NCBI GenBank assembly: GCA_000999715.1
Contig: LCGL01000001.1
Coordinates: 131,139 to 195,138, forward strand
DNA from: Candidatus Falkowbacteria bacterium GW2011_GWF2_43_32
GTDB taxonomy: Bacteria > Patescibacteriota > Patescibacteriia > Patescibacteriales > UBA12465
Length of the DNA: 64,000 bases
Reading direction: 5' to 3'
A program made the position numbers and the translations under genes. The number at the start of each line of letters is the position of its first letter. Position 1 is the first letter of the stretch. Positions 176-23,868 of this stretch are shown in pieces. The notes under the pieces are model-generated. The model worked only from the letters and a program-made list of their open reading frames with translations. It searched no databases and was not told where the DNA came from.

Positions 176-802
176 TTATTTTATCGCCTCCAATTTTTTG
201 ATTCGCGCTTCCAGGCTATCAATTTCCGCCTGCTGTTCTTTAATCGCTTCAATCAAAGGGGCGACCAAGTTGGCGTAATGTACCGATTTCGTATCGCCAG
301 CTTCGGAAACTAAAACCGGAAACACTTGTTCCACTTCCTGAGCGATTAAACCGATGCCGGCCTCGCCGTCCTTAATCCAATCAAAAGAAACGCCGCGTAA
401 TTGCAGGATCTTGTCCAGCGAACTGTCCAAAGTTTTGACGTTCTTTTTCAATTTTTCATCCGAAGCATAAACAAAAGCCGTCGCCGCCGCCGTGCCGTTG
501 ACGTGCAGGAGATAACCTGGACTGGTTGTACCGATGCCAACATCGCCGTATTCAACAACAAACCCTATGGCAGGCTGATTTTTGGCAACATAGAGACCAC
601 CACCAACTTCTCCCAAGCGCTGGACTCGCAAATCCTCGTTCAAATAACTGCCTGTAATCGCCGCCTCCGTTTTCCAAACTGCCAGACTAAAGACGGCAGT
701 CGTCAAAATAACGCCAATCACCAACCAAGGCGCACCGACTTTCACATTCTTGAGATTGTTCATAAGATTGTTCATAAAATTTAGATTATTATCTATGTTC
801 AT
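176..802 (-). CDS. Short tail-fibre-like protein with an N-terminal TM anchor, one GDVGIGTTSP unit and a C-terminal endosialidase-chaperone (peptidase S74 / PF13884-type) domain
   Basis: This is ORF 176-871. The hydrophobic segment is GAPWLVIGVILTTAVFSLAVW. The C-terminus reads SDEKLKKNV..LRGVSFDW..GLIAQEVEQVFP..YANLVAPLIEAIKEQQ followed by a coiled-coil tail, and it is paralogous to the C-terminus of 3355-7695. The track start at 871 lies inside the upstream terminator hairpin, so I prefer the ATG at 802; the ATG at 775 is also possible. Confidence 0.75.
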   Translation of the reverse strand: MNIDNNLNFMNNLMNNLKNVKVGAPWLVIGVILTTAVFSLAVWKTEAAITGSYLNEDLRVQRLGEVGGGLYVAKNQPAIGFVVEYGDVGIGTTSPGYLLHVNGTAAATAFVYASDEKLKKNVKTLDSSLDKILQLRGVSFDWIKDGEAGIGLIAQEVEQVFPVLVSEAGDTKSVHYANLVAPLIEAIKEQQAEIDSLEARIKKLEAIK

Positions 803-831
803 ATAATACCATATTTTGAAAAACCCGTAAA
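803..831 (-). promoter_or_regulatory. Candidate sigma70-type promoter (TTTACG-17 nt-TATTAT on the minus strand)
   Basis: Read on the minus strand, TTTACG is at 831-826 and TATTAT at 808-803, separated by a 17-nt spacer. If this promoter is used, the real start codon is the ATG at 775 rather than 802. Confidence 0.3.
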
Positions 832-865
832 TAAAAAGCCCCTCCTGACAAAAGTCAAGCGGGGC
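829..865 (-). terminator. Rho-independent terminator after the 882-2828 gene
   Basis: The minus strand reads GCCCCGCTTGAC-TTTT-GTCAGGAGGGGC, with 11 of 12 positions paired, followed by TTTTTATTT. Confidence 0.55.
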
Positions 866-881
866 CCTCAAATAAACACAA

Positions 882-2828
882 CTACTGTTGATAAACCGTT
901 AAGCGATCGGTGCGATCGGCCAAGAAAACTTTATCTCCAAAAACGGCGATACTGCCACTCTTGCCCGGCGCGGTTGTCCAGAGGATGTTACCACCCAAAT
1001 CCATTCTGGTTATTCCAACATAACTACCACCAAACCGATTAGAAAAATAAAAACTATTCTCGTCATATTTCCTTACAAAAATATGTGTACTTTCACTTCC
1101 CTCCGCAACAACTTGCCGCCAAATCAAGTCCAAGCCTTGTCCGTCCGCTCTCAAGCGATAACAAGTTACAAGAGACTTATAGGGAATACCTTCTGACAAA
1201 CTGCCAAAACTTTCACTGACAATCAACAAGGAATCGTTCGGAAAAATTTGTAGGCCCTGGGCTCCTGAGCTGTTAGAATAATCAGGCCCCAAAACTTCCC
1301 AGAGCTCGTTGAAGTTCTGGTCAAACTTGGAAATTACGAGTACGCCATAAGCCATAAACCCTCCCGCCATAAAAATGTCGTCATCCATAAAAACAATATA
1401 GTCATAATCCGTCACCAAGCTTGGTTCACCAATGATCTCTCCATTCGGATTCAATATCGTAGTTTGCTGAAATCTCGGGGTATAAAGATTTCCATTCGCG
1501 TCCATTGCCAAACTGGGAGCCATTCCCTGTCCGGGATCAACCAAGGTACTCCAACGCAACTCACCGCTTTGACAATCATAGGCGTCAATATAAGTGTCGC
1601 CATCGCCAATTCCCAGGGCGGCATTTCGAACGATGTGATAATAAACCACCCCATTGGCGACGATAATGCCACCGCGGGGATAATCTATTTGGTCGGTTAC
1701 AATATCATTTTTCCAAACCAGTTCGCCGGCGGTATTGAATTTGGCGACGAAAGCGTCTCCATAAATACCGTTAAATTGTCCGCCGACATAAACATTCCCA
1801 TCCGCATCAACTTCCAAATCCCAAATCTCGGTTTCGGGGATGTAAAATCCCTCCAAAGTGGTAAATACCATGTCTGCGCCATAGGTCGTGCCGAGCGCGT
1901 TAGTGGCGGTTATGCGGTAATAATAGGTCGTTCCTCCGGTCAATTGTCCCAAATTAAACGATACGGTCGTATCGTTGATAATCACGGCGCCGGAACTGAC
2001 TACTACCCGATTGCCGTAATCCTTGGCCAAATCATATTCAAAAGAAATGGAAGTAACCAGCGCGTTGGCTTTAACCACGGCATTTAAAGTCGCGGTCGTA
2101 ATGCCCACCTCGCTGGCGGCTTGAGTAATCACAATCGGCGCGTGATCGGCAATCAAAGTGGAGAAAGTAAAATCATAACCGTATCTCGTACCGGCCGCAT
2201 TTACGCCTTTCACGGCGTAATGATAAAGTTCACCGTCTTCCAGGCCTTCCAAGGTCACCGACACCACGGTATCGCTTTTGATAAGCAAACCGGTGCCGAC
2301 TGTCGCGAAATAACGATAAGAAGTGGTCGGGCCGTATCCGAAAGAAATATCAACCGGCAAAGGATTGGCCTGAACGGCGGCAAACAAAGTAACCGTCGTC
2401 GTTCCCACTCCCTCCGCTTCCATGGTCGTGACTACCGGAGCGGAAACGGGCGCGGACAAAGTTCGAAAAGAAAGATTGCGTCCGTAACTGGTGCCGGCTT
2501 CGTTTTTGGCATAAGCTTTCACCGCGTAATCGGTGTCCGGACTCAAGCCGGAAACAAGCACGGAAAACGGACCGTAACGCTTATTCTCCGCCGAATAAGC
2601 CTGGCCTGATTCCAAAATGATAATACCCAAATCCAACAGAGTTGCTCCTCCGTCAGATTCCAAACTGCCGTTAATGACGGCGGAGCGAGCAGTGACGTCA
2701 CTGCAAGAAACCGTGGTTACTTTCGGCAATTCCGTAAATACTTCGGGTTTGCAACAAGAAAACAAAATCATCTGCGCCAAGCCGGTTGCTACAACCAGCC
2801 AAATGGCAATAACTTTAATTTTTTTCAT
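882..2828 (-). CDS. Lipoprotein with three FN3-like repeats and a C-terminal beta-propeller (SBBP/PQQ-like repeats)
   Basis: The protein is 648 aa with signal and lipobox MKKIKVIAIWLVVATGLAQMILFSC. It has three ~95-aa repeats ending GTSYGRNLSFRT, GTRYGYDFTFST and GTTYGADMVFTT. The C-terminal half carries repeats such as DADGNVYVGGQF..FVAKFNTAGELVW, typical of SBBP-type propellers. Confidence 0.7.
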   Translation of the reverse strand: MKKIKVIAIWLVVATGLAQMILFSCCKPEVFTELPKVTTVSCSDVTARSAVINGSLESDGGATLLDLGIIILESGQAYSAENKRYGPFSVLVSGLSPDTDYAVKAYAKNEAGTSYGRNLSFRTLSAPVSAPVVTTMEAEGVGTTTVTLFAAVQANPLPVDISFGYGPTTSYRYFATVGTGLLIKSDTVVSVTLEGLEDGELYHYAVKGVNAAGTRYGYDFTFSTLIADHAPIVITQAASEVGITTATLNAVVKANALVTSISFEYDLAKDYGNRVVVSSGAVIINDTTVSFNLGQLTGGTTYYYRITATNALGTTYGADMVFTTLEGFYIPETEIWDLEVDADGNVYVGGQFNGIYGDAFVAKFNTAGELVWKNDIVTDQIDYPRGGIIVANGVVYYHIVRNAALGIGDGDTYIDAYDCQSGELRWSTLVDPGQGMAPSLAMDANGNLYTPRFQQTTILNPNGEIIGEPSLVTDYDYIVFMDDDIFMAGGFMAYGVLVISKFDQNFNELWEVLGPDYSNSSGAQGLQIFPNDSLLIVSESFGSLSEGIPYKSLVTCYRLRADGQGLDLIWRQVVAEGSESTHIFVRKYDENSFYFSNRFGGSYVGITRMDLGGNILWTTAPGKSGSIAVFGDKVFLADRTDRLTVYQQ

Positions 2829-2926
2829 TATTCAAATTTTAAAGTGCTGATTGTATTGAACAACCTCAATACTTGGTTCGTCTCTTTGTTGAGACTGATT
2901 TAAAGATAAGCTTTAAATCTATCTGA

Positions 2927-2955
2927 AGTATAGTATATTTTTATATAAATGTCAA
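2927..2955 (-). promoter_or_regulatory. Near-consensus sigma70 promoter for the 882-2828 gene (TTGACA-17-TATACT)
   Basis: On the minus strand TTGACA is at 2955-2950 and TATACT at 2932-2927, with a 17-nt spacer. Confidence 0.5.
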
Positions 2956-3011
2956 TAATATAAGCTAAATCTTATTTAAGATTAGCTAAAATACGGCCAT
3001 AATATTAAGCC

Positions 3012-3353
3012 CTAACGCCGCGGTCTCAAGTTTTCCAGCAACTGCTCATATTCAGCATCGGTGAGTGTCGGCGTAGCGGTGGGCGACGGTTTCAAATTTT
3101 CCAATAACTGCTCATATTCGGTGTCGGAAAGCGTCGGCGTGGCGGTGGGCGACGGTTTCAAATTTTCCAATAACTGCTCATATTCGGCCGGAGACAATGT
3201 TGTGCCGCTATCCTCGCTCTTTTCTTCATTCAACCAAGGAACGATTTGTTCCAGCGGTTTGTCCTTCAAGCTCAACAACAAATAGGCGACCGCCAGCGTC
3301 ACCAAGATGGCTATGATGGAAATGATAATTCTTTTGGTTTTGATGTTTAACAT
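3012..3353 (-). CDS. Small membrane-anchored protein with tandem 22-aa repeats
   Basis: The protein is 113 aa with N-terminal TM segment IIISIIAILVTLAVAYLLLSL. It then carries 2.4 copies of EYEQLLENLKPSPTATPTL(S/T)D(T/A). Confidence 0.6.
   Translation of the reverse strand: MLNIKTKRIIISIIAILVTLAVAYLLLSLKDKPLEQIVPWLNEEKSEDSGTTLSPAEYEQLLENLKPSPTATPTLSDTEYEQLLENLKPSPTATPTLTDAEYEQLLENLRPRR
3031..3190. repeat. 66-bp tandem repeat, about 2.4 copies (units start at 3031, 3097 and 3163)
   Basis: The unit ttttccaataactgctcatattcggtgtcggaaagcgtcggcgtggcggtgggcgacggtttcaaa recurs head to tail with a few substitutions. It lies in-frame inside CDS 3012-3353. Confidence 0.9.
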
Positions 3354-3354
3354 A

Positions 3355-6300
3355 TTATTTGATTATTTCTAAAGCTCTGATTCTGGCTTCCAAATCATCA
3401 ATAGTTTTGGTTTTCGCTTCCAAGTCCTCAATCTTGGCTTGCTGTGCTTTGACGGCCTCAATCAAAGGCGCGACCAAGTTGGCATATTGCACGCCCTTGG
3501 CTCCGTCCTGACCGAAGACCAATTCCGGGAAAACTTTTTCCACCTCTTGCGCAATCAAACCGACACTTGGCGATCCGTCTTGTTTCCAATCGAAAGTAAC
3601 ACCGCGCAATTTCAAGATTTTTTCCAAAGAATTATCGATACTCGCGACATTTTTCTTCAAATTGCGATCGGAACTCCAAATGAAAGAGCTCGCTTTGACG
3701 TTGCCGTTAACTTCCAGTTTTTCGCTCGGCGCCGTCGTCCCGATGCCAACGTTCCCCGACGTCGGCAAAATTGTAATTCTGGCGGTTCCATCAAAATTTC
3801 CTGACTTAATATGAAAACGTTTATCAGTATCGGTTCTCAATCCCATCCACCAGTCATCCGTTCCGGCGGTCTGGAAATAGACTCCGCCGGCGTTCGTCGT
3901 AGCGCCTCTGTCAATTTCTATCCCGGCTCCGGTGGAACTGTCCAAATGCAAACCATACCCGACAAGATCACCGGCTACGGTTAGCGCTTGGTCGGGCGCG
4001 GTGGTGCCGATGCCGACATAACCCAAATTGTTAATCCTCATCATTTCCGTGGCATTACCGGTATTCCTGGAACCGAACGTTAAAGCGCTAGTTACCCCGG
4101 CATTTATAGCTACACTCTTGATAAATCCGCTGACACCGACGCCGCCGGTGGAGACGTCATTCGCGTAAAATTCAATGCCGCCATAATCATTAGCCACATC
4201 TATAGTGGTGTGCGTGTTCTCTATTCTAAGGTATGGGGCACTGGCTGAAGAGCCGCCATCTTTTGTAATCTGTAAAAGTTTCGCCGGCGCTGTCGTCCCA
4301 ATCCCCACATTCCAAGCCGTAGAACTGGCATAAAGATTGGAGCCGCTCAAACCCCAATAAGTGCCGGCCATACTATCAACATAAGCTTTCGTGGCGGCAT
4401 CGGTGTCAACAGTCGGTGTAGCCACATTACCGATTTTTCCGCTGCCGGCTTTGATGGTATAACCGGAGGCCACAGTCGCCACTTCCAATCCGGCAGTCGG
4501 TGCGGTTGTTCCAATTCCGAAATAACCGGAACTGTTAATAGTCATTCTGGTAGCCGCATTCACAACAAACTGCATTAAATCACCACTATTATTATACACA
4601 ATCCACCCTCTATCCGTGTCATCGCTATCGCCAAAATCCAATCTGGCGACAGACGATGTCCCGGAGGTAATTCTTGCAATCGTATTTCCTGTTCCCAAAA
4701 TATGTAATTGAACTTCAGGGGCTGTCGTGCCGATGCCGACGTTGCCGGCTTGTGTCCAAGTCAAAACATCTACGTCAGCTGCAGAAGTATTAACATGTCC
4801 TAGTGTTGCTGAATCTCCTGCCTTACTAGCAATAAATGCCATATTATTTTCAAGTCCTGCTTCAGAAGCATCATAGTGTCTAATTTCTAATCTTTTTTGT
4901 TGAGTTACTTCACCATTAATTCTTACTTTGGTAGTTTCTGCTGATTCTGTATTAATATCTAAATGTGCTTGTGGGCTTGTTATTCCTATACCCACCTTCC
5001 AAGCCGTGGAGCTGGCATAAAGATTGGAACCGCTTAAACCCCAAGGCTGAGAAGCGCTGGCCACGCTGTCGGCATAAGCTTTCGTGGCGGCATCGTCATC
5101 GGCAGTCGGTGTGGCGACATTACCGATTTTTCCGGCGCCGGCTTTGATGGTATAGCCGGAGACCGCAGTCGCTACTTCCAATCCGGCGGCCGGCGCGGTG
5201 GTGCCGATGCCGACCAAACCGGTTGACGTCAATCTCATTACTTCGGAATCCTGCGCTGCTCTAAAAGCCAAATATCCCATTTCTGCTACCGTGTTATTTG
5301 AAAACGTAATAATCGAACCATAAGGCGTGGTTGTGTCTTTTGTAATTACAAATTGTCTTACTGAAGAGGGGGCCACGCTACCAAGAGTTAAACTTATTGT
5401 TCCGCTGTCCGTGTTAGTCCCGGTTGAAACATGAAGTTTAGACGCCGGAGCGATAGTGCCGACGCCGACGTTGCCACCTAAAGGATTTAACAACAAGTCA
5501 TAAGCAATGGACGCCGTACCAAAATTCCTAGATTGGATATAAGAAGGATAAGGAGATCCGAGCGTTCCCATGACCATTCCGACATTACTTCCGTCGCCAA
5601 CTACTAAAGCACCCTGGGCTGCCGGAACAGTTAAGTCAGGCGTGGCTAAAGCCGCTTTTACTTCTAGAGCCCGACGCGGATTAGTCATTCCGATGCCGAC
5701 GTTGCCGCCAACTTGCTGCAAAATCAGATTATTATCACTAGTACCACCTAAGTCATAGGCCTGAAGACCAGTGTAAGTATCACCACTTGTCGCTCCAGTT
5801 AAAATTCTAAAACCAGAGCCAACCCCAGTAGCATAATCAGAGTTATAAAATCTTGCTAAATCGGATGAAGCGGAAGACGGTTGAACATGCAAAGCCGACG
5901 AAAGTGCTACAGTAGGATTGAGAGCTATCTTTCCTATCACTGTTAAGTTGGCAGAAGGCGCCGTCGTCCCGATTCCGACTTTTCCATTGGCTAAAATACG
6001 CATACGTTCTGTCAAAGCAACATCGGCTACAGCATTACGAGTTGAAAAAACTAAATCTCCTATCGTATTTGTTCCACCATTAGTAAGATGCCCCTTAATA
6101 GACGCCCAACCAAGCGAGCCTGCCGCTACCGATTGAACGTTACCGAATATTAATGCTCCACCGCTACCGGCGCTGGTAGTTGATGAATTTAGTGCTAACA
6201 TATCAGTCCGCACGCCGGCATCTGTCAGATTGGCCGTTAACTGACCGGCGCCATAAAGCTCAAGTTTTGATTTTGGATTCGTCGTCCCAATCCCCACATT

Positions 6301-7695
6301 CCAAGCCGTAGAACTGGCATAAAGGTTGGAACCGCTCAAACCCCAGTAACCGACCGTGGAACCAGAACCACCGGCAAGGGTAGCGACCAAATAACCTTTA
6401 TTGACAACGTCTTCATCCTGAGTGATGGTGGAGGTTCTCATCTTAATTAAATCACTGACATCTAGTTGCGCTAAAGGAGCGGTAGTACCGATGCCAACGT
6501 TGCCGGCATTAATAGTCATATAAGAAGATGCGGCCGTCCCCCATGATTGAATATTATTATTAGGATCTCTCTCCCACCACGTTTTAGTGTCAGTCATGGG
6601 AGTCGTAAAAGAACTGTCAACCGAAATAGCGTCATGAACTCTGGCGGTAGTCCACGACGTACCCGCCGCATCTCTAACCAACCAAATCATGTTTTTGACA
6701 AAATTGCTTGACTTACCCTGAAAAGTGGTTATTATTTGACTATTTCCTGCCGTTTCTCCCAATAATGTTGTTTCTAAAACATCTAATTTTGACCCCGGAG
6801 CGGTTATACCGATGCCTGTATTACCAGAAACTAGAGAAACAATATTACCATTGTCTCTTACCGCCCAAGCCCGATCAATTGATTGAACTTCTTCTACTGT
6901 CGGCACGCCGAACCAATTTGAGACACTAACACCGGCATTGTAATAATTTAAAAACCTAAGCTTAATATAGGCAACATCGGCCCCTAATCTGTAATTACTG
7001 CTGGCGGTATCGCTTGGATTGGTCCAATCATTAGCTGTTCCCGAGCCAAAAAGATAACCGGTTTTTCTAAACCAAGTGTTGGCGGTCAAATCTCCGTTCC
7101 AAAAATAATAATTAGCAGTGCCCACGCCGGCCGAATTATAACAATTGACTTCCGCTTTAGCACTATTATAACAATCAAATCCCAAATATCTTGTTCCCGT
7201 GGTGGCATTATCTGTCCGAATCCATAAACTCAGCCTATAGGTTTTTTCATTATCAACCGGTATAAAATTTGAATATATTTGAACATCGCCGGTGGTAGTT
7301 ATTTTTAAAACTTGAGCATATTCTCCGGTGGGTAACTGCATGGTTTCTACGGAATTACCGGCTTCACCGGTCCACTGATTCATATCTGCAAAATACGGAT
7401 CCGGCAATAAATTATCGGAAGCGGGCGACCAAGAATAGGCATTATAAATATTATCTCCGAATTTTATATTACCGCTGACATCTAAAGCGGTCGTCGGCTC
7501 AGTCGTCCCGATCCCCACATCTCCGTCGATGTTCCAAATTCCGTCACCGGGGAAAGTGGCACCGTTAGCAAAATCCGGGCCGGTCTGCGCTTGTGCCATT
7601 GTCAAACCGAAAAGAGCGACCAAGGCCGCGAGAGAAAAAATTAATATTTTTTTAGACATAAACGTATTGTTTAAGCTGTTGATTATCTTTTCCAA
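3355..7695 (-). CDS. Giant secreted tail-fibre-like fibre protein (1446 aa) with a C-terminal S74-type intramolecular chaperone domain
   Basis: The signal peptide is MSKKILIFSLAALVALFGLTMAQA, so the start is possibly at 7659. I count about 14 G-x-V-G-I-G-T-T-x-P units, plus internal duplications such as AGLEVAT..SGYTIKAG.GKIGNVATPT.D.DAATKAY.D..WGLSGSNLYASSTAW.VGIG. The last 105 aa (3358-3672) read SDRNLKKNV..LRGVTFDW..GLIAQEVEKVFPELV..YANLVAPLIEAVKAQQ followed by a coiled coil. Confidence 0.85.
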   Translation of the reverse strand: MEKIINSLNNTFMSKKILIFSLAALVALFGLTMAQAQTGPDFANGATFPGDGIWNIDGDVGIGTTEPTTALDVSGNIKFGDNIYNAYSWSPASDNLLPDPYFADMNQWTGEAGNSVETMQLPTGEYAQVLKITTTGDVQIYSNFIPVDNEKTYRLSLWIRTDNATTGTRYLGFDCYNSAKAEVNCYNSAGVGTANYYFWNGDLTANTWFRKTGYLFGSGTANDWTNPSDTASSNYRLGADVAYIKLRFLNYYNAGVSVSNWFGVPTVEEVQSIDRAWAVRDNGNIVSLVSGNTGIGITAPGSKLDVLETTLLGETAGNSQIITTFQGKSSNFVKNMIWLVRDAAGTSWTTARVHDAISVDSSFTTPMTDTKTWWERDPNNNIQSWGTAASSYMTINAGNVGIGTTAPLAQLDVSDLIKMRTSTITQDEDVVNKGYLVATLAGGSGSTVGYWGLSGSNLYASSTAWNVGIGTTNPKSKLELYGAGQLTANLTDAGVRTDMLALNSSTTSAGSGGALIFGNVQSVAAGSLGWASIKGHLTNGGTNTIGDLVFSTRNAVADVALTERMRILANGKVGIGTTAPSANLTVIGKIALNPTVALSSALHVQPSSASSDLARFYNSDYATGVGSGFRILTGATSGDTYTGLQAYDLGGTSDNNLILQQVGGNVGIGMTNPRRALEVKAALATPDLTVPAAQGALVVGDGSNVGMVMGTLGSPYPSYIQSRNFGTASIAYDLLLNPLGGNVGVGTIAPASKLHVSTGTNTDSGTISLTLGSVAPSSVRQFVITKDTTTPYGSIITFSNNTVAEMGYLAFRAAQDSEVMRLTSTGLVGIGTTAPAAGLEVATAVSGYTIKAGAGKIGNVATPTADDDAATKAYADSVASASQPWGLSGSNLYASSTAWKVGIGITSPQAHLDINTESAETTKVRINGEVTQQKRLEIRHYDASEAGLENNMAFIASKAGDSATLGHVNTSAADVDVLTWTQAGNVGIGTTAPEVQLHILGTGNTIARITSGTSSVARLDFGDSDDTDRGWIVYNNSGDLMQFVVNAATRMTINSSGYFGIGTTAPTAGLEVATVASGYTIKAGSGKIGNVATPTVDTDAATKAYVDSMAGTYWGLSGSNLYASSTAWNVGIGTTAPAKLLQITKDGGSSASAPYLRIENTHTTIDVANDYGGIEFYANDVSTGGVGVSGFIKSVAINAGVTSALTFGSRNTGNATEMMRINNLGYVGIGTTAPDQALTVAGDLVGYGLHLDSSTGAGIEIDRGATTNAGGVYFQTAGTDDWWMGLRTDTDKRFHIKSGNFDGTARITILPTSGNVGIGTTAPSEKLEVNGNVKASSFIWSSDRNLKKNVASIDNSLEKILKLRGVTFDWKQDGSPSVGLIAQEVEKVFPELVFGQDGAKGVQYANLVAPLIEAVKAQQAKIEDLEAKTKTIDDLEARIRALEIIK

Positions 7696-7700
7696 TTATA

Positions 7701-9266
7701 TCATTTTCTGTAATAGTAATCAAATAAAACATCGGCTAAAAAGGGCGAATGGAATTTATCCGGCCAAGCCGGAAAAACCGCTCGCAAAAAGAATTGATTG
7801 ATGGACGGCGTGACGAAATCTAAAGCGGTGCCGGCCGGCAATTCTTGCCAGTTTTGACCGTCGGTGGAAAAAGAAAGTTTTATCGTTTCCGCGCTGGCCG
7901 CGTCCAAATTCAAACGACTCTTGGCGATACCCTGAAGAGAAAATTGCGGCGCGCGCGCCAAAGGATTGAATTCCACTTGCGCCGGCGTGTTGTTTTTAAA
8001 ACCGCGGTCCACAAAAGCTTTCCATTCCGTTTGATCGTTATCTATTGTCTTGGCTAAGAGCACATATTTATCGGCCGCAGTTTCCGCCAAACGAAAAGCG
8101 ACCGCATCCACACTGCCCAAAGTCCGACTGAAAACCGCTTCCCCGACAATGTCTTCGCCGCCGTTCTGCCAAAGCTTGATTAGGCGCGGTCGCGACAGAG
8201 TCGTACTGAAAACATACCAGTTGACATCCTGAGCGCGAGTGGCTTTAATCGCTTCCGCCTGAAAACCGTTGGCCATAACGCGGATATCAAAAAATCGGCT
8301 GATATCGGTCAATCCCTCGGGCCGAACGCGATAGGCAATGCCCTTATAAGCTCCGTAAATAAGCAAGAAATCACTCTCTTCCCCACCGCCGCCGAACAAG
8401 CCGAAATACGATGAATTGATTTGATTATTAAGCGTGGCGCTTAACAAAGGCGTAAATTCCCGTCCGTCAAAATAAAAAACCAAACCTTGATAACCGCTAG
8501 TATTTTTTAAAGTGAAACCGACTACCCAGCGTTCCGCCAAAGAGAAAAAAGAAATGGCGCTGATTTCCCGGTCTTTGACTTCCGCCGGCAAAGCTAAGGG
8601 CCGATCATTATAATACAATTCGCCCCATCGCTGTTCCAGGCAATCGGCGCCCAAACAACGACGGTCAAAATAAGGACCTTTGAAATTATTGAAATTAAAA
8701 TCCGTCCAAGAATCCGCCTGGGCGGCCACCAGATCTTCGGCGGCCGTTTGCCAACTGTAATCCGGCGGAAAAAACAGCGCCGTCGCCGTTTTATCTTGGT
8801 AAAGCGTAGTTTTATTGAAATTCATGAAAGCTTCGGAAGAAAAAGTATCAAAAAAAGTGCCGAAAGTCAGTGTCGGATCAATAATATTGGGTAAGGAATC
8901 CGTTTTCGTCGTATCGGAGTCTCCCGTCAGCGAATGCTGGGGACCGATGGTCAAAGAAGAAACGGCCGGAATGACACCATCAGGTTCATCTTCCTTGGTA
9001 ACATTGACCGAGGTCGGCGGCACGACCGCTTCTGTCCCCTTCTCCGTCTCGTTCTCCGTCAGCACCGTCGCCGCCGGCTGTTCGGACGGCGCGGAGGCCG
9101 AGAAATTAAATCGGGAAATATAATAAGCCAAAAAATAAACGATTACGCCCAGGAACAATAAAATAAAAGTTCGGAAAATTGTCGTTCCCAGTTTTTTTCC
9201 GCTTGACAATTTTTTAGTTGGAGTTTTTGCCGACATAAAACAAAGAATTTTAATCGGAAGAGACAA
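7701..9266 (-). CDS. Membrane-anchored extracellular protein of unknown function
   Basis: The protein is 521 aa with one N-terminal TM segment, TIFRTFILLFLGVIVYFLAYYI. I recognised no motif. It sits between fibre genes on the same strand. Confidence 0.6.
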   Translation of the reverse strand: MSLPIKILCFMSAKTPTKKLSSGKKLGTTIFRTFILLFLGVIVYFLAYYISRFNFSASAPSEQPAATVLTENETEKGTEAVVPPTSVNVTKEDEPDGVIPAVSSLTIGPQHSLTGDSDTTKTDSLPNIIDPTLTFGTFFDTFSSEAFMNFNKTTLYQDKTATALFFPPDYSWQTAAEDLVAAQADSWTDFNFNNFKGPYFDRRCLGADCLEQRWGELYYNDRPLALPAEVKDREISAISFFSLAERWVVGFTLKNTSGYQGLVFYFDGREFTPLLSATLNNQINSSYFGLFGGGGEESDFLLIYGAYKGIAYRVRPEGLTDISRFFDIRVMANGFQAEAIKATRAQDVNWYVFSTTLSRPRLIKLWQNGGEDIVGEAVFSRTLGSVDAVAFRLAETAADKYVLLAKTIDNDQTEWKAFVDRGFKNNTPAQVEFNPLARAPQFSLQGIAKSRLNLDAASAETIKLSFSTDGQNWQELPAGTALDFVTPSINQFFLRAVFPAWPDKFHSPFLADVLFDYYYRK

Positions 9267-9324
9267 AATAAATCTGATAAACCTTTCTTTTATTATAACA
9301 CGATATTCGGACCGAAAGCTATAA

Positions 9325-9352
9325 ACAAAACACCCCGCGAACGGGGTGTTTT
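9325..9352 (-). terminator. Rho-independent terminator after the cupredoxin pair
   Basis: CACCCCG (9331-9337), a CGAA loop and CGGGGTG (9342-9348) are flanked by an A-run and a T-run. The minus-strand reading ends in TTTTGTTT. Confidence 0.65.
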
Positions 9353-9367
9353 ATCGCAGACAGAAAT

Positions 9368-10045
9368 TTATTTAACAATCATCTTGCCGGTTTCGCCGCG
9401 GCCCTTGTGTCCGCCGACATTGCAGAAGAAAGCGTATTCGCCGGCTTTGTCCGGAGCGTTGAAAGTGACCGCTCTGGTTTCTCCGGAATACACGCCGATG
9501 CCGATAGCCGATAAGGAAGGATCTTCAAAAACAAAGCTATGGACATAAGAATCCACCGAAGTAATGGCAATCGTTATCGGGGCGCCGGTTTTAACTTCAA
9601 ATTCTTTCGGACTAAATCCCGCCGTGGAAACATCCAACTTGATAACGCTGGCGGACAGTTCTTCTTTCGCCACCGGACCGGTTTCACCCGGAGCTTCCGA
9701 TGAAGATTGGGAAACGTCATTGGCGGTCGGCTTGCCTTCCAAGGTGACCACTTTATTGTCTTTGGTGATCGGATTGGCGCCCGGAACTTCCACCCGAGCG
9801 TCCTGTAGAACCGTGTTGACTTCAATCATTTCTTCGGACTCTAACGGTATTTCTCCCTCCGCGGTCGTCGCGTCCGTCGGCTGATTAATCTCTCCCGGAT
9901 TAACCGCTTTCTTGCTCTGAGAAATCGCCACGATGATGATTAGAATAATCACAACCGCGACACCCAAAATAATCCAGATTTTTTTAGAATTGTTCTCCAT
10001 ATTTTTTAGATTATTAATAAAATAGTTAGGATTATTATTCAACAA
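9368..10045 (-). CDS. Membrane-anchored type-1 copper (cupredoxin, azurin/plastocyanin-like) protein
   Basis: The protein is 225 aa with an N-terminal TM segment and a long Pro/Glu/Thr-rich linker. The C-terminal domain carries the ligand pattern YVHSFVFED ... FFCNVGGHKGRGETGKM (His, Cys, His, Met). Confidence 0.6.
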   Translation of the reverse strand: MLNNNPNYFINNLKNMENNSKKIWIILGVAVVIILIIIVAISQSKKAVNPGEINQPTDATTAEGEIPLESEEMIEVNTVLQDARVEVPGANPITKDNKVVTLEGKPTANDVSQSSSEAPGETGPVAKEELSASVIKLDVSTAGFSPKEFEVKTGAPITIAITSVDSYVHSFVFEDPSLSAIGIGVYSGETRAVTFNAPDKAGEYAFFCNVGGHKGRGETGKMIVK

Positions 10046-10733
10046 TCATCATACCGGTTTCGCCGCGACCCTTATGTCCCGGAATATCACAGAAGAAGGC
10101 ATATTCCCCTTTTTCCGGAGCATTCCAAGATTTTACTCTGGTGCTGTTTCCGCTAACGCCCAAAGCGGTCGCAATCAAAGCCGGATCTTCCAAGCGCCAG
10201 ACATGAGTAAATTCGTCGGTGGAAGTCAACACAAAATTAACCAATTGCCCCGCTTTGACGGTAAAAGTATTCGGCGAAAAACCGGCCGAGCTGACCGACA
10301 ATTTAACGGTATAAGCGTTATCTTCCACCAAATCGGCGGAAGCAATCGGCGCCGATTCTTTGGGGGCGTCGGGTGAAGAAGGCATCACATTAAGTTTGAC
10401 CGGTGCACCCTCGGAAGTCACCACTATATTATCCTCCGTAATCGGACTGGAACCGACCGCCAAAGGCCGCGCTTCCTGAAGAGTTTCCATGTCCACCACT
10501 TCTTCAGAGACAACGCTTTTGGATGGAGCCACTTCGCCGTTGGCATTCTGTTGCGCCGCCGGTTGAATCGTTTCTGCCGGTCGGCCGTCCTTATTGGCCG
10601 CTTGTTTGCCTTGTAAAACGGCAATGGCGACAATCAAGGCGACCAGCACTACGATGCCTAAAATAATCCAAATTTTTTTAGCACTGTTTTCCATATTTTT
10701 AAAATTTAAGATGCCGGCGACTAAGCGCGCCAA
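10035..10733 (-). CDS. Membrane-anchored cupredoxin, tandem paralogue of 9368-10045
   Basis: The protein is 232 aa with the same architecture, reading FTHVWRLED ... FFCDIPGHKGRGETGMM. Its stop overlaps the next start by 11 nt. Confidence 0.6.
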   Translation of the reverse strand: MARLVAGILNFKNMENSAKKIWIILGIVVLVALIVAIAVLQGKQAANKDGRPAETIQPAAQQNANGEVAPSKSVVSEEVVDMETLQEARPLAVGSSPITEDNIVVTSEGAPVKLNVMPSSPDAPKESAPIASADLVEDNAYTVKLSVSSAGFSPNTFTVKAGQLVNFVLTSTDEFTHVWRLEDPALIATALGVSGNSTRVKSWNAPEKGEYAFFCDIPGHKGRGETGMMIVE

Positions 10734-10796
10734 CGCATTAATTATATAAATTTATTAATTACATTATACCATGATTTCCGCCATTTTTGAATATCT

Positions 10797-13700
10797 TTAT
10801 TTTACTTTCACGCCCTGCCGTGTTTGATCCTTGACTTTCAACGGCCACTTACGCCAATCAAAGCGTTTGCCAATCAAGCGATATGAAATTTCAGCCGGAC
10901 GATCGGAACGGAAAATCAATTTATTGTCTTGAATCAAATAATATACGGAAGCAAATTCGCCATAAGGAGTAATTAGAACGTCTACACTGTCTTTGCTAAA
11001 ATCAACTATTTGCCGCCAAACCCAGAGTTCGCCGCCCTCTTCCGTCTTGGCAAAATCAATCACCGCCTCAAATTCCGTCTTTACTTCGGCAGCTGTCGGC
11101 ACCGCAACTTTTCGGTTAATTTTAATCTTGCCGACATATTCTTCTTTCACGCCGCCGACGACGGAAGAAACGAAAGTCGCGTAATTAATGCCGTTAAGGA
11201 AATATAGAGGATCAATGGTGGTGGCGTTTAATTTTTCAACCGTTAAAGTACCCACTTGATCAATTGAATAACCGCTCATATCAATATATCCCTGCATATC
11301 TCCGCCGGCAAGAGGCAAATAGCCGCCTGTTTCATAAGTACCCGACGTACCGGCAATCAGTGTTTTAACTAATCCATAATTGGCTAAAGCATAATCATCT
11401 TCGGAAAGATAAGTGTCGGCATAGTTATGACCGGTGCCGGAAGATCCGGCCGGAGCGGCGACACCGGAATTGGTAATGGAAAAAATGTCATTCGGCGCGG
11501 TGGTACCGATGCCGAGTCTTCCGGATATATCAAGAAGCATGGCCGTTCCACTGCCAAAAGTATCATTATTAACATTAAATGAAATGCCTTTGCCGCTTCT
11601 ACCTTGCAAGGCCAGAGTACCGCTATAATACCCGACATATGACCGAGAATTAAACTCTATTTTAGGAGAACCGGTTATCCCGCCCCCATCATCAAGAGAC
11701 AATAAAGATGGAGGACTGACCGTTCCAATTCCGACATATCCGGAATTTAAAGTGGTCAAACCTTTTATCATGTCAATCTGAGTACCGGCCGGCAAACTGC
11801 CGACTAAGACTCCGGTGTCACCCTCCACAATACTAAACGAACCGCCAACTTCAATGCTTTGGTTCAAGATAGAATGGCTATAATATAAATAAGAGGAATT
11901 CACGTTGCCGACATATAAATCAATCGTCTTGGAGCTCTCGGTATCGGCGGTAATGATAGCTTTTACATCAAACGAGGTGCCATTATTTGAAACACTGCCG
12001 AGATGGTGAATATCTACAATCGGAGAACTGGTCATCGCCGGTTGTCTGGCGGTGAATTTATATATGCTGGTAACATCATTATCATTGGTAATACCCCTCA
12101 TATGGGTCATAAACGTTCCCTGATATGTATGGTACTGACCGGTTAAAGTTAGGGTTCCTATCTTATGCCACTTACTGTTAGTCGGATCTAATCTTGCAGA
12201 TTTCCAAGTAGTTATCATTCCCGTTGATTTGATTATTCCGTTGACCTCCAGTCTTTGACTGGGATTCGTCGTGCCGATGCCCACGTTGCCACCATTCGCA
12301 ATATAAGAAACAGCATTGGCAGTGGCAGCCAATTTTATATTATGATTATTTGCTCCATCATATAAACTTAACGTTCCGCCCCAATCTTGATTATAAACTT
12401 TAAACCGAACCCCTGATGAAGTATAATTTATGGCAAATAAATCAACGTCTTCACCCGTAAAATCTATTTGCAGCTTACCAAGAGTCGGTGCCGTCGTCCC
12501 GATACCCACGTTCCAAGCCGTAGAGCTGGCATAAAGATTGGAGCCGCTCAAGCCCCAATAGCCGACCGTGGAACCCGAGCCGCCGGCGATTAATGTTTTA
12601 ACCACTCCATAATTGGTCAGGGCGTAATCATCGGTAGAAAGATAAGTATCGGCATGGTTATGACCGGTGCCGGAAGATCCGGCCGGAGCGGCAACGCCGG
12701 AATCGGTAATGGAAAGAATATCGTTAGGCGCGGTGGTGCCGATGCCAACATACCCCAGATTATTAATCCTCATCATTTCTGTGGCATTGCCGGTATTTCT
12801 GGAACCGAATGTTAAAGCGCTGGTCACCCCGGCATTTATAGCTACACTCTTGATAAACCCACTGACACCGACGCCGCCAGCGGAGATATCATTCGCGTAA
12901 AATTCAATACCACCATAATCATTAGCCGTATCTATAGTGGTATGTGTATTTTCTATTCTAAGATACGGGGCGCTGACCGAAGAATCGCCGTCTCTTGCAA
13001 CCTGTAAAAGCTTTGCCGGAGCCGTCGTGCCGATGCCGACATTACCGTTATATCTAATCGTCATTGCTCTGGCTAATGTTCCATCGGAAGTAGGGGCTAC
13101 ATCGAAGAAAAGATCGGAACCAAAAGTATTTACGGAATTGCTATTTATCGTGCTTCCTATTCTTGCATAATTTATATTTGCATCATTGTTTTGATAATTT
13201 GATCCACGGAAAAGTATTCCGCCTCCATGCCCAACATAAGGCAGGGTATTTGCTTTTGCCGATATCGTCAATATATCATTGTATGTAGTGCGGTTTACTG
13301 TTTCATATCTTTGAATTTCTGTTTGCGTGTTTGGCACCGTCGTCCCAATCCCGACGTTGCCGCCAGAAGTAATTCTCATTTTTTCAGTTGTAGCACTTGA
13401 AATTCTCGTTCTAAAAGCTAGATCACCACTTGCACCATTTACATACCTTATAGCATCTATTTCCGCCATGGGCGTTGCGGCATCAGCACTAGTAACATCA
13501 AAAGCTAATCTCGCACCATCTGAATTAGTAGTTCCTTTGTGTCTAATGGTTGCTATTGTTTCAATCCCTGCGCCATTAGTCCCACCTGCAATCTCTATAG
13601 GTGTTGTCGGATCCGTCGTCCCGATTCCCACCTTCCAATCGGTGGAACTGGCATAAAGATTGGAGCCGTCCAAACCCCAGTAACCGACCGTTTCTCCGGA

Positions 13701-14342
13701 ACCGCCGGCGATAGCGGAACCAATGGCAGAATCCAAATAACCTTTATTAATAACATCTTCATCCTGAGTGATGGTGGAGGTTCTCATCTTAATTAAATCG
13801 CTGACATCTAACTTAGCGCCGGGAGTGGTCGTACCGATACCAACGTAACCGGTGTCGGGAATAACTAAAGCCGGATTGGAACTCTGAAAAATATAATTGG
13901 ATACACCGACCGAACTGCTTCCCAGCTTCAATGTCGCCCCTACACAAACCCCTCCGATTAACTCATAGCCCTGGGCGCAAGCCGAGCAAACCTCGGTACA
14001 TTGATTAAAAGTCGTACAATTATCGGGAACGGTAACATTCAATTTACAAGTAGTCGTTGAACATTTGGTGTAACCGGTATTACAACTTAAAACGCAATAG
14101 TTATATGAGCAACTAAAAGCATAGGTTCCGCCGGTCGGGTTAACCGGACAATCGGCGGTAGACTCCACTTCGCAAACAAGAGTATTTCCGTTACACCACG
14201 ACCTCCCTTCCGTCCAATTACAAAAGACACCGTCTTTCATGGTATTGGTTTCACAACCTCGCGTGGATGTATCAGCCTTAGCCGAAAAAGAAATCAAGAG
14301 TCCGAAAAATATTAAAATGGGAAGCAGTTTTGTATGCTTCAT
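10797..14342 (-). CDS. Giant secreted tail-fibre-like fibre protein (1181 aa) with an N-terminal Cys-rich module
   Basis: The signal peptide is MKHTKLLPILIFFGLLISFSAKA, followed by a Cys-rich N-terminal ~110 aa. I count about 9 GIGTT units. There are two copies of the cassette NDI(L/F)SIT.SGVAAPAGSSGTGHN.ADTYLS.DDYAL.NYG.VKTLIAG. Near the C-terminus is a tail-fibre-type LPLAGGDMQGYIDMSGYSI motif. Confidence 0.85.
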   Translation of the reverse strand: MKHTKLLPILIFFGLLISFSAKADTSTRGCETNTMKDGVFCNWTEGRSWCNGNTLVCEVESTADCPVNPTGGTYAFSCSYNYCVLSCNTGYTKCSTTTCKLNVTVPDNCTTFNQCTEVCSACAQGYELIGGVCVGATLKLGSSSVGVSNYIFQSSNPALVIPDTGYVGIGTTTPGAKLDVSDLIKMRTSTITQDEDVINKGYLDSAIGSAIAGGSGETVGYWGLDGSNLYASSTDWKVGIGTTDPTTPIEIAGGTNGAGIETIATIRHKGTTNSDGARLAFDVTSADAATPMAEIDAIRYVNGASGDLAFRTRISSATTEKMRITSGGNVGIGTTVPNTQTEIQRYETVNRTTYNDILTISAKANTLPYVGHGGGILFRGSNYQNNDANINYARIGSTINSNSVNTFGSDLFFDVAPTSDGTLARAMTIRYNGNVGIGTTAPAKLLQVARDGDSSVSAPYLRIENTHTTIDTANDYGGIEFYANDISAGGVGVSGFIKSVAINAGVTSALTFGSRNTGNATEMMRINNLGYVGIGTTAPNDILSITDSGVAAPAGSSGTGHNHADTYLSTDDYALTNYGVVKTLIAGGSGSTVGYWGLSGSNLYASSTAWNVGIGTTAPTLGKLQIDFTGEDVDLFAINYTSSGVRFKVYNQDWGGTLSLYDGANNHNIKLAATANAVSYIANGGNVGIGTTNPSQRLEVNGIIKSTGMITTWKSARLDPTNSKWHKIGTLTLTGQYHTYQGTFMTHMRGITNDNDVTSIYKFTARQPAMTSSPIVDIHHLGSVSNNGTSFDVKAIITADTESSKTIDLYVGNVNSSYLYYSHSILNQSIEVGGSFSIVEGDTGVLVGSLPAGTQIDMIKGLTTLNSGYVGIGTVSPPSLLSLDDGGGITGSPKIEFNSRSYVGYYSGTLALQGRSGKGISFNVNNDTFGSGTAMLLDISGRLGIGTTAPNDIFSITNSGVAAPAGSSGTGHNYADTYLSEDDYALANYGLVKTLIAGTSGTYETGGYLPLAGGDMQGYIDMSGYSIDQVGTLTVEKLNATTIDPLYFLNGINYATFVSSVVGGVKEEYVGKIKINRKVAVPTAAEVKTEFEAVIDFAKTEEGGELWVWRQIVDFSKDSVDVLITPYGEFASVYYLIQDNKLIFRSDRPAEISYRLIGKRFDWRKWPLKVKDQTRQGVKVK

Positions 14343-14364
14343 AACTGTCTAAATTATACAATTA

Positions 14365-17199: not shown

Positions 17200-17260
17200 A
17201 GTTAATTTAACTTATTATACAAAGAAAACCCGAATTTGTCATTTAACACGCTCAAGAATT

Positions 17261-19339
17261 TCATTGACAGCAAGCAAACCGAATAGAATTATTGCATTGC
17301 ATCAACAAGCCGCGCCCCTCCGGAAAACCGGTCGCCGGTTTCTGCCAATAAGTACCGTAAGCGGCCGAGGTATTATTCGTCCGCGCATTACAATCGTTGG
17401 CTAAAGCCGTATAGGCGGGAGGACCGTTAAAAACCCAGGCGTCTTCCGAGGGCGGACTGCCGCCGTCTTTAATCGTATTCAAAATTTCAAAAGTGGCGCA
17501 GACATGAGAACCGGCATATTCACCGGCGCACTCCGCATGAGCGTAAGCGTAACCGGCCGTACCGCTGTTATCGCCGTTATAAATACCGGTTGTTACGCCG
17601 ACAAGAACCGCCGTCGTGGAAGAACCGGAAAGAATAAAAGTGGAGTCCACATATCCCTTGGTAACCACATCCGTATCGGCGGTCGGAGCGGCCACGTTAC
17701 CGATTTTATAAGACATCTCCGTGGAAGTGCCGGCCAAAATCGCATAGCCGCTGACAGGCGCCACCTCCAAGGGAGCGGCCGGAGCGGTGGTGCCGATGCC
17801 CACATAACCGCTTTTCAAAATCGCAAATTTACTCGTTGAGGCAACCTGTAAATCAAGCAATTTAGAAGTGGAGGTGGAATTGGTATCGGTAATATTCATC
17901 AACCAAGCGGTAAATTCCGTGTTGGCCTCATTCCAGGTTTGGCTGGTGTTCAAAATCGGCGCATTAGTGGTCATCGTTGCGCCGCCGCTGATAATATCTC
18001 CGAATTTGGTCACCCGGAAACGAGTAATACCGCCGACTTGAAAATTCAATAAATCGCCAACAAAATTCGCGGGAGGATTAGCGCCGATAAAGGTGCCGGA
18101 ACTGTCCTGACCGGTCAAATCATTGGGACCGATCTGAAAAAAAGTTTTGGAAGTCGGCGGCAAACCGGTGTTGGTGCTGAAATTTGTTTTTAAAGAGTCA
18201 CCGATTTTTAATTGCAAAGTGCCGGCGTCATATTCAATGGAACGCTGTAAATCCGTGTCGGTCGGATTGTCCGGATCGTAAAAAGTGATACCGGGCGAAG
18301 AAGCGGCCACCAGTAAAGGAGCGGAAAAAACAAAATTACCGTTAGTGCCGAGAGTCGGATCGAAAGAAATACTTTCCCAGCCGTCGGTAGTGCGGCCCAA
18401 TTGAATCTTGCCCGTGGAAGTGGCGCCCAGCGGATTTTCAACGAACGAAGCCGCCCCCGAAGCATCTAAATCCACCAAAACATTGCCGACCACGCTTAAC
18501 TTCTCTGCCGGAGTAGAGGTGCCGATGCCGACATTACCACTAGTCGGTAAAACCATTAATTGAACAGAATTGTTTTCTCTCACAGAAAAATTCTTACCAG
18601 TAGGTCTATTAAGTATCAGTTGTTGGTCGTTTATACCACTAAGAATATTCATATTACCAAGAGTTTTCGTCAATCCATTCAAAGATATTCCCATATAACC
18701 ATTGCTTGGTTGCCCCACCTCAAATTCGCCACGAGTTGCATAAGTATCATCTTGAACATGAAGTTTTGATTGAGGTAATAGAAGCCCTATCCCCACCTTC
18801 CAATCATTGGAATCGGCATAAAGATTGGAACCGCTCAAACTCCAATAACCAACGGTTTCTCCCGAGCCGCCGGCGATTAATGTTTTAACCAATCCATAAT
18901 TGGCCAGGGCATAATCATCGGTAGAGAGATAAGAAGCGGTGTAATTATGACCGGTGCCAACGGATCCCAACGGCGCGGCTGTGCCGGAATCGGTAATGGA
19001 AAAAATATCGTTCGGCGCGGTGGTGCCGACGCCGAAATCGCCGGAAGCAAACAAATCAACCGCCTGAATTGTGCCGTTGACTTCCAAACCGCTGGCCGGA
19101 GCGCTGGTGGCGATACCGAGCGGCCCGTTCATGGAAACCGGCAGCCAAGTGTTAACGAAATCCGTAAACAAATCATTCCATTCCGAAGAAGTTAAAGTAC
19201 CATTATATTCTTTTTCATAAGTGGAGGTGGAACTGGCGGCCCGAGCTCCCTGTAAAGAAAAAATAAATAAAAAACTTCCGCCTAACAACAAAAAAGCGGC
19301 TAATTTAATCGTTAATTTTCGTCCGAAAAATAAGGACAT
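17261..19339 (-). CDS. Secreted tail-fibre-like fibre protein (692 aa) with the same 6-Cys C-terminal domain
   Basis: It has a signal/anchor segment, 4-5 GIGTT-type units and one copy of the NDIFSITDSG..GHNYTASYLSTDDYAL cassette. The last 106 aa (17261-17581) are homologous to the C-terminus of 14365-17199: GSHVC, NGPPAYTALANDC, FACCQ. Confidence 0.85.
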   Translation of the reverse strand: MSLFFGRKLTIKLAAFLLLGGSFLFIFSLQGARAASSTSTYEKEYNGTLTSSEWNDLFTDFVNTWLPVSMNGPLGIATSAPASGLEVNGTIQAVDLFASGDFGVGTTAPNDIFSITDSGTAAPLGSVGTGHNYTASYLSTDDYALANYGLVKTLIAGGSGETVGYWSLSGSNLYADSNDWKVGIGLLLPQSKLHVQDDTYATRGEFEVGQPSNGYMGISLNGLTKTLGNMNILSGINDQQLILNRPTGKNFSVRENNSVQLMVLPTSGNVGIGTSTPAEKLSVVGNVLVDLDASGAASFVENPLGATSTGKIQLGRTTDGWESISFDPTLGTNGNFVFSAPLLVAASSPGITFYDPDNPTDTDLQRSIEYDAGTLQLKIGDSLKTNFSTNTGLPPTSKTFFQIGPNDLTGQDSSGTFIGANPPANFVGDLLNFQVGGITRFRVTKFGDIISGGATMTTNAPILNTSQTWNEANTEFTAWLMNITDTNSTSTSKLLDLQVASTSKFAILKSGYVGIGTTAPAAPLEVAPVSGYAILAGTSTEMSYKIGNVAAPTADTDVVTKGYVDSTFILSGSSTTAVLVGVTTGIYNGDNSGTAGYAYAHAECAGEYAGSHVCATFEILNTIKDGGSPPSEDAWVFNGPPAYTALANDCNARTNNTSAAYGTYWQKPATGFPEGRGLLMQCNNSIRFACCQ

Positions 19340-19814: not shown

Positions 19815-19889
19815 AGGCGTGATATCCGAATAATCGTTGTAATATTAGGCTATAAATTGTTCCCACAACCGAACCGCCGGATTAAAAAT

Positions 19890-20985: not shown

Positions 20986-21082
20986 GAAAATTATTATTAA
21001 TGACTTTAATTCTGTCGGCCGCTTTAATTAATCATTCCCCTCCCGACCGTTCTAATATGCCTCTTCTCTCCCGGTCGCCGCT

Positions 21083-21700: not shown

Positions 21701-21728
21701 CTTGTTTCCGTTTATTCCGCTCAACCGA

Positions 21729-23819: not shown

Positions 23820-23868
23820 AAATTTCGGTCATCTGCCGACAAATCCCTCTCGGACGACTTGTTATTTG

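Follow-up and report, generated by a model that had tools for sequence, protein, structure and literature searches.

The window analysed here is a 64-kb stretch (64,000 nucleotides) of contig LCGL01000001.1 from Candidatus Falkowbacteria bacterium GW2011_GWF2_43_32 (GenBank assembly GCA_000999715.1, positions 131,139 to 195,138). The organism is placed in the Parcubacteria group of the Patescibacteria, or candidate phyla radiation (CPR). Five genes on the minus strand of the window are predicted from their sequences to encode secreted surface fibres that resemble phage tail fibres and are of the mosaic adhesive trimer (MAT) kind described for Bdellovibrio bacteriovorus. Two of them, g3355 and g10797, share a module of 97 residues, cassette D, which is exactly one unit of the fibre stalk, running from one loop motif to the next. 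The five fibre genes are as follows.

3355-7695, minus strand: g3355, an open reading frame (ORF) of 1446 residues from a TTG start, with 13 loop motifs and a C-terminal Peptidase_S74 domain
10797-14342, minus strand: g10797, 1181 residues, with a signal peptide and 9 loop motifs
14365-17199, minus strand: g14365, 944 residues, with a Cys-rich N-terminal domain, 7 loop motifs and a Cys-rich C-terminal tip (14368-14739)
17261-19339, minus strand: g17261, 692 residues, with 4 loop motifs and a Cys-rich C-terminal tip (17264-17647)
176-871, minus strand: g176, a small protein of 231 residues with one loop motif, a Peptidase_S74 domain and SDEKLK at 446-463

The loop motif, [VFL]G[IV]G-T-T-x-P, occurs 34 times in these proteins and cuts them into units of about 60-140 residues. 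The units fall into "bead" units, which end in "...ERMRI..GN", and three kinds of "connector" (classes A, B and C), which end in "YWGLSGSNLYASSTAWN". Classes A, B and C occur in differing combinations across four genes. The N termini of g3355, g10797, g14365 and g17261 are signal-peptide-like. For g3355, gene callers place the start 12 codons further in, at an ATG at position 7659, which gives a protein of 1434 residues. The NCBI annotation of g10797 (P0001, DCZ15_02305) covers only the C-terminal 755 residues and begins 9 residues before cassette D. The reading frame is open over 1181 residues, the JGI call also has 1181 residues, and the N-terminal domain has many homologues.

The ends of the fibres are of several types. 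The Peptidase_S74 family (PF13884), whose domain is a self-cleaving intramolecular chaperone, matches g3355 with 64 bits (E 1e-17) and g176 with 60 bits, against a Pfam cut-off of 22, and the SDxxxK motif is present in both. In g3355 the match covers residues 1342-1393 (3517-3672), with SDRNLK at 3655-3672, and the last 123 residues of g176 are 58% identical to the g3355 C terminus. A Cys-rich N-terminal domain, situated at about 13863-14270 in g10797, is common to g10797 and g14365 (41% identity), and g3355 has a sub-threshold CBM_4_9-like region instead. At its other end g10797 carries a conserved tip that is not S74 (about 10800-11342). Pfam recognises the S74 domain only, and NCBIfam has no family for any of the fibre proteins.

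The Cys-rich C-terminal tip is common to g14365 and g17261. It was modelled by AlphaFold2 with low confidence (predicted local distance difference test (pLDDT) 67, reached by one of five models). Foldseek matches of this model are weak (E at least 0.02), and all are C-type lectin-like proteins, including snaclecs, so that the tip is possibly C-type-lectin-like, which is suggestive at most. For Bdellovibrio, the protein Bd2740 has been likened to snaclecs (Caulton et al. 2024, PMC10769870). The tip, with the invariant pattern GSHVC...NGPP.YT..ANDC...FACC, also recurs at the C termini of other Patescibacteria fibres, with up to 80% identity.

Comparison of the window against itself with blastn reveals cassette D as the strongest internal match, between 3995-4311 and 12727-13043 (317 nucleotides, 86.4% identity, 43 mismatches, no gaps, E 5.8e-105). 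Both copies are on the minus strand. This confirms the gapless alignment between the 1446- and 1181-residue genes on which the original prediction was built, and translation reproduces its count of 8 differing residues in 97, with the last 51 identical. The description of the copies as almost verbatim holds for the protein (92% identity), but the DNA is only 86% identical. The block had been placed at 4001-4290; it is real, but the homology extends a few bases beyond these limits, from VGIGTTAP to VGIGTTAP, as given below.

4018-4308, minus strand: cassette D copy 1, one complete bead unit of g3355 (residues 1130-1226), from the VGIGTTAP motif to the residue before the next motif
12750-13040, minus strand: cassette D copy 2, one complete bead unit of g10797 (residues 435-531)
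3994-4017, minus strand: closing VGIGTTAP motif of cassette D in g3355, the C-terminal limit of the homology; its partner in g10797 is at 12726-12749

The DNA of the closing motif is identical at 23 of 24 nucleotides, position 315 of the alignment being the single mismatch in the last 24. Cassette D is the penultimate stalk unit in g3355 and lies in the middle of the stalk in g10797. The units that flank it are only 27% and 34% identical in protein and 42-47% in DNA, against 92% and 86% for the cassette itself, so that identity is not uniform along the genes and the claim that the flanks are far more diverged is upheld. In class as well as in length, the flanking units differ between the two genes, and by their sequences they are different unit types and not diverged copies.

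Other modules are repeated as well. The second cassette of the original prediction, NDI(F/L)SIT, was found the predicted four times in three genes and corresponds to class A (g10797 residues 532-611 and 943-998, g14365 residues 196-275 and g17261 residues 102-181). The class A copies are 78-84% identical in DNA, with 0.42-0.84 synonymous substitutions per synonymous site (dS). A string of 55 nucleotides, encoding "YWGLSGSNLYASSTAWNV", had been noticed at three places, besides diverged versions at four others, and recurs at the three (4305, 6294 and 12506) with no more than 3 mismatches, whereas the number expected by chance is 0; a copy within 4972-5046 had been missed. All of these repeats are direct and on one strand.

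12510-12749, minus strand: class A connector ("NDILSIT...YALTNYG...YWGLSGSNLYASSTAWN") in g10797; other copies at 11349-11516, 16375-16614 and 18797-19036
6298-6498, minus strand: class B connector ("LDVSDLIKMRTSTITQDEDVVNKGYL...") in g3355; partner at 13632-13844 in g10797, with 82% nucleotide identity and dS 0.65
4285-4359, minus strand: junction "YWGLSGSNLYASSTAWNVGIGTTAP" containing the 55-nucleotide string, one of eight copies in all
6274-6348, 4972-5046, 12486-12560, 13608-13682, 15469-15543, 16351-16425 and 18773-18847, minus strand: further copies of the junction

The codons of the loop motif are GC-rich in comparison with those used elsewhere in the fibre genes. Among the 24 VGIGTT instances in 176-19339, ATC is used in 75% of cases against 20% elsewhere, ACG in 71% against 23%, and GGG in 54% against 10%. 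The DNA of the motif is therefore more uniform than the codon usage of the genes predicts. Such uniform DNA would suit a role as short homology for module transfer, although this is only an inference.

A codon alignment of 315 nucleotides contains 44 differences between the two copies of cassette D. Thirty-four of these fall on third positions, of which there are 105, and 39 are transitions. By the Nei-Gojobori method dS is 0.65-0.69, with a proportion of synonymous differences of about 0.45, and the number of nonsynonymous substitutions per nonsynonymous site (dN) is 0.04. The resulting dN/dS ratio (omega) of about 0.06 is lower than in the other shared modules, where it is 0.12-0.36. The closest pairs in the shared module classes have dS values of 0.40-0.85, and the flanks and terminal domains are saturated (dS >1.7). 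This pattern indicates that the protein identity of the cassette reflects strong purifying selection on a widely conserved domain. High amino acid identity thus coexists with synonymous sites that have diverged, so that near identity of the proteins does not count as evidence of recent recombination in these genes.

The arrangement of the fibre genes was compared with other assemblies. Contig DNKM01000006.1 of NCBI assembly GCA_003489845.1, whose proteins are named Candidatus Falkowbacteria bacterium, is 100% identical to the window across 14.3 kb. A JGI metagenome contig of 418 kb has 99.97% identity across 23.5 kb. Around both cassette copies, not a single base differs between the two independent assemblies, and the identical 1181-residue g10797 protein is present on 5 contigs. 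The sole difference between the window and the JGI contig in these 23.5 kb lies at 5509-5516, inside g3355, and is a small block substitution with compensating 1-nucleotide indels.

To place the stalk unit among known proteins, sequence and structure searches were performed with cassette D. An exhaustive HMMER search with the 97 residues found 593 representative proteins at E<=1e-3, including 71 at E<=1e-10. The nearest copy other than the two in the window is about 70% identical (P0121), and no outside sequence exceeds 72%. The AlphaFold2 model of the unit, calculated as a monomer from an alignment of 58 sequences, is all-beta and has a pLDDT of 92.8 and a predicted template modelling (TM) score of 0.80. 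When this model was compared with the Protein Data Bank using Foldseek, the fibres Bd2439 (E 9e-5, 32% identity) and Bd1334 of B. bacteriovorus ranked first, and a phage tailspike and the T5 L-shaped tail fibre came next. Against viral models (BFVD), 42 matches were obtained at E<=1e-3, with TM scores up to 0.86, and many of these are annotated as S74 or tail-fibre proteins.

The sequence profile of the unit gives a consistent picture. It matches Bd1334 (6e-12), Bd2133 (3e-11) and Bd2439, and the units share ends of the form "SERMRI..sGNVGIGT.aP". Phage proteins annotated as tail fibres in INPHARED, from cyanophages and roseophages, are 36-42% identical to the unit. Units like D are also present in a phage-like protein of S74 type (P0125), at a similar position before the S74 domain. 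On profile matches and modelled fold, the window fibres are demonstrably homologous to MAT and phage tail-fibre proteins in their stalk units and S74 ends. Cassette D would be a structural element of the stalk, possibly with a ligand cleft.

Eight proteins from other Patescibacteria resemble g10797 at both ends, with 44-79% identity in the N-terminal domain and 44-58% in the C-terminal tip. Their stalks comprise 5-16 units of entirely different composition, and none of the eight contains the D unit. The two D copies of the window are closest to each other. Outside the window, the closest D relatives were one locus at 58% among GTDB species genomes, five loci at up to 58% in JGI metagenome contigs, one locus at 47% in IMG/VR and phage sequences at up to 42% in INPHARED.

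A single unit is also shared with a phage. Immediately N-terminal of cassette D in g10797 lies the following unit.

13041-13355, minus strand: unit u3 of g10797, matched to a phage unit by protein search

At the protein level, unit u3 has 86% identity to a unit encoded by a tail-fibre-like gene of a crAss-like phage, and the match spans exactly one unit from motif to motif. The partner lies in a gene of 1202 residues on the 26-kb contig Logan SRR31729315_305642 (positions 10077-10406), and genes near it match crAss-like capsid, ring and auxiliary capsid families as well as phage lysozyme. The GC content of the phage contig is 34%, against 45% for the window. The DNA of the two units is 75.8% identical, with saturated synonymous sites (dS about 2.3) and a dN of 0.10. 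In IMG/VR and INPHARED, searches with u3 returned only the generic loop motif or nothing. The match indicates that phage and cellular fibre genes have single units in common, and the high protein identity of u3 despite saturated synonymous sites supports the reading that purifying selection maintains cassette D.

The original prediction held that homologous exchange between paralogues is shuffling fibre modules. The genes are indeed mosaic, and past transfer of a module between the paralogues is probably the most economical reading of the data. It is improbable, however, that recent or ongoing gene conversion keeps the cassette near-identical and actively shuffles modules. Such conversion would account for a cassette that forms an island of homology between unrelated flanks and is discordant with them, for the C-terminal two-thirds being 90% identical in DNA against 77% in the first third (breakpoint P=0.027), and for a closing VGIGTTAP motif with 23 of 24 nucleotides identical; the GC-rich, uniform DNA of the loop motifs could serve as a substrate for recombination. 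Yet synonymous sites are not near-identical, with 34 of 105 third positions differing and a dS of 0.65-0.69, and there is no excess of identical sequence, as the longest identical run is 32 nucleotides against a permutation mean of 28 (P=0.26). The protein identity is accounted for by an omega of 0.06 without conversion. Comparing strains or metagenome read variants had been put forward as a way to find alternative arrangements of the cassette. Between the NCBI and JGI assemblies the arrangement does not vary, their lone difference lies elsewhere (5509-5516), and five contigs carry an identical 1181-residue protein. The high dS, the absence of a run longer than chance and the shared arrangement together therefore argue that no recent gene conversion has occurred. 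As to the suggested route to surface or receptor-binding variation, what has been shuffled is a unit of the stalk rather than a demonstrated receptor-binding tip.

Exchange can also be dispensed with altogether, if the whole gene was duplicated and only the most constrained unit is still recognisable. This is consistent with the low omega of D (0.06 against 0.12-0.36 in other shared modules), with the conservation of the unit type over many taxa and with a weak alignment of the two genes along much of their stalks (about 34% identity). We nevertheless consider it unlikely. Protein constraint should spare synonymous sites, but those of the flanks are saturated (dS >1.9) and those of D are not (0.65); constraint on the protein cannot explain the lower dS in D, and exchange is favoured over differential constraint. 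Moreover, the flanking units differ in class and length, neither the N-terminal nor the C-terminal domains of the two genes are related, and the relatives of g10797 lack D. Independent gain of the unit by each gene from related outside donors, such as phage tail-fibre genes or other bacteria, would fit the match of u3 to the crAss-like phage, which implies that single units move between phage and cellular genes, and the D-like units of P0125 and of cyanophage and roseophage tail fibres. It appears improbable as well, because the window copies are 92% identical in protein and 86% in DNA to each other, against at most 72% in protein for outside sequences, and four collections contained no close external donor. 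An origin as an assembly artefact (a repeat-induced chimera), or as the template and variable pair of a diversity-generating retroelement or another form of programmed variation, seems highly improbable, even though the genes are rich in repeats and were assembled from a metagenome. The artefact was rejected by comparison of the two independent assemblies, which agree base for base, and a difference of 14% between the copies is enough to resolve them. A retroelement, shufflon or invertase was rejected because Pfam scans of about 45 ORFs found no reverse transcriptase, invertase or recombinase in the 64 kb, all repeats are direct, and the mismatches are mostly third-position transitions in both directions, with no adenine bias.

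The best explanation overall is likely to be an old copy of a single stalk unit between paralogues, with its ends at the loop motifs, followed by purifying selection. One unit would have been copied by recombination, with ends in or beside the conserved DNA of the loop motifs. The donor was probably g3355, the S74-type gene, and the recipient g10797, although the reverse is also allowed. The transfer would date from long ago because dS is about 0.65. Since then, strong purifying selection (omega about 0.06) would have held the protein identity of the copies at 92% as their synonymous sites drifted apart.

Several observations weigh against this history. The mismatches are unevenly distributed, with 23 in the first 99 nucleotides and 21 in the last 216 (max-chi-square P=0.027). 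This skew may reflect a later partial conversion or a more complex history, or weaker constraint on the N-terminal third of the cassette, where most of the amino acid changes lie and the model shows no regular secondary structure. The dS estimates for D rest on about 100 codons and carry wide errors. No closely related genome with both genes was found, as the genome, metagenome and viral collections yielded relatives of at most 58% identity. Finally, the five window proteins do not have one common N-terminal domain, which is reported for the Bdellovibrio MATs.

MAT fibres are surface fibres of B. bacteriovorus (Bd2439, Bd1334, Bd2133 and Bd3182; Caulton et al. 2024, PMC10769870). They form an intertwined trimeric beta-helix with capping loops, and their ends are either S74 domains (SDxxxK) or interchanged adhesive tips (PMC10769870). 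One member binds prey glycans, and the mosaic domain composition gives the family its name (PMC10769870). In the tip of Bd3182, two capping loops are 96 residues apart (PMC10769870), which is close to the 97 residues between the loop motifs of cassette D. The window fibres have the same stalk unit, as indicated by profile E values of 6e-12 and 3e-11 and the top Foldseek matches, and the same "...ERMRI..GNVGIGT.aP" unit ends. Profile, Foldseek matches and the 34 motifs agree on a stalk of beta-helix units bounded by capping loops. As in Bdellovibrio, there are several paralogues per genome, and these split into members with S74 and SDxxxK (g3355 and g176) and members with other, conserved tips (g10797, g14365 and g17261). 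The published MAT consensus V-G-[GN]-pi-x-x-P-x-x-x-L does not match the window fibres literally; the aligned Bdellovibrio sequences carry the VGIGT.aP form.

There are also differences from the Bdellovibrio fibres. The host is a member of the Patescibacteria and not a predatory deltaproteobacterium-like diderm, and a keyword literature search surfaced no paper linking MAT fibres with Patescibacteria. Mosaicism is seen here in the stalk units, which are shared among paralogues and with phage, and not in the tips alone. Trimeric surface adhesion belongs to the Bdellovibrio fibres, whereas the window fibres are known from sequence and a monomer model. Because mosaicism is the property that gave the MATs their name, a shared module is nothing unusual in this known family of mosaic fibres.

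The S74 tail fibres and tailspikes of phages, such as the T5 L-shaped tail fibre pb1, the K1F endosialidase and those of cyanophages and roseophages, have both the S74 domain and the unit fold in common with the window fibres. In contrast to these, the window genes are cellular, have signal peptides and are situated amid housekeeping and pilus genes, and their stalks, made of many units, are much longer. Phage fibre genes are well known for exchanging segments in a modular way. Cassette-based antigenic variation is known from systems such as pilE/pilS of Neisseria and vlsE of Borrelia, and these are similar in that paralogous surface-protein genes share segments bounded by short conserved sequences. 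However, the window contains no silent cassettes, no near-identical tracts (dS 0.65) and no variant arrangements between assemblies, and every fibre gene consists of a full-length ORF with a promoter-like site of its own.

As shared modules between paralogues define both the MAT and the phage tail-fibre families, cassette D itself is ordinary, and it shows no sign of active switching. It is a clean example of an exchange unit that is exactly one stalk block from capping loop to capping loop. It also illustrates how high amino acid identity coexists with synonymous sites that range from diverged (dS 0.65 for D) to saturated (about 2.3 for the unit shared with phage).

The window contains genes for threonyl-tRNA synthetase, RecG, a RadA-like protein, S-adenosylmethionine synthetase and adenosylhomocysteine hydrolase, three tRNAs and a type IV pilus cluster. 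It is therefore a segment of the cellular chromosome of Candidatus Falkowbacteria and not of a phage, and Pfam scans of the window ORFs found no phage structural genes near the fibre genes. The pilus cluster contains the following genes.

19434-31305, minus strand: type IV pilus cluster, upstream of the fibre genes on the same strand
30226-31305, minus strand: PilM
26773-28554, minus strand: PilB-type ATPase
25548-26753, minus strand: PilC
19434-21979, minus strand: pilin-like genes

The five fibre genes (176-19339, minus strand) are directly downstream of this cluster on its strand. Strong matches to the sigma-70 promoter consensus, which are consensus matches only, occur just upstream of g17261 (19400-19372), g14365 (17242-17214), g10797 (14381-14353) and g3355 (7723-7695). 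Encoded beside type IV pilus genes, the fibres probably serve in host-cell attachment of a presumably episymbiotic bacterium.

MAT-type fibres thus appear in CPR bacteria beside pilus genes with a presumed role in host attachment, and one or more of their units also occur in a phage fibre. Searches for the host-recognition proteins of uncultured episymbionts could take these observations as a guide. A broader proposal, which we put forward tentatively and regard as rather doubtful, is that an ultrasmall CPR episymbiont carries a battery of MAT-like host-recognition fibres beside its type IV pilus operon, and that the stalk units come from a pool shared with phage tail fibres, with episymbionts and phages on the same host surfaces swapping units at the capping-loop motif. 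If true, recognition hardware would be exchanged unit by unit between them.

Several other features of the window were observed. Between g3355 and g882, an fn3/PQQ-like gene, an ORF of 113 residues (3012-3353, minus strand) contains about three tandem repeats of 22 residues, "SPTATPTL[ST]D[TA]EYEQLLENL[KR]P"; in DNA, 3021-3121 and 3087-3187 share 89% identity. Between the fibre genes, at 9368-10733 on the minus strand, are two tandem paralogous membrane proteins with a cupredoxin domain (PF13473) and a protein of 521 residues that has no family match. An island of low GC content (33-36% against about 46%) extends from 38000 to 44300. It is bounded by repeats (39821-39973 and 43726-43949, inverted copies included) and adjoins a tRNA-Ser (44161-44252). 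Its genes encode HD-domain and NYN-domain proteins as well as one that has a PEP-utilizers mobile domain. Separately, an ORF with only a PPDK_N domain is situated at 54758-55537. Among unannotated ORFs, a TraG/VirD4-like P-loop ATPase (PF19044) is encoded at 49528-51426 on the minus strand and may be part of a type IV secretion or conjugation-like machinery of Patescibacteria.

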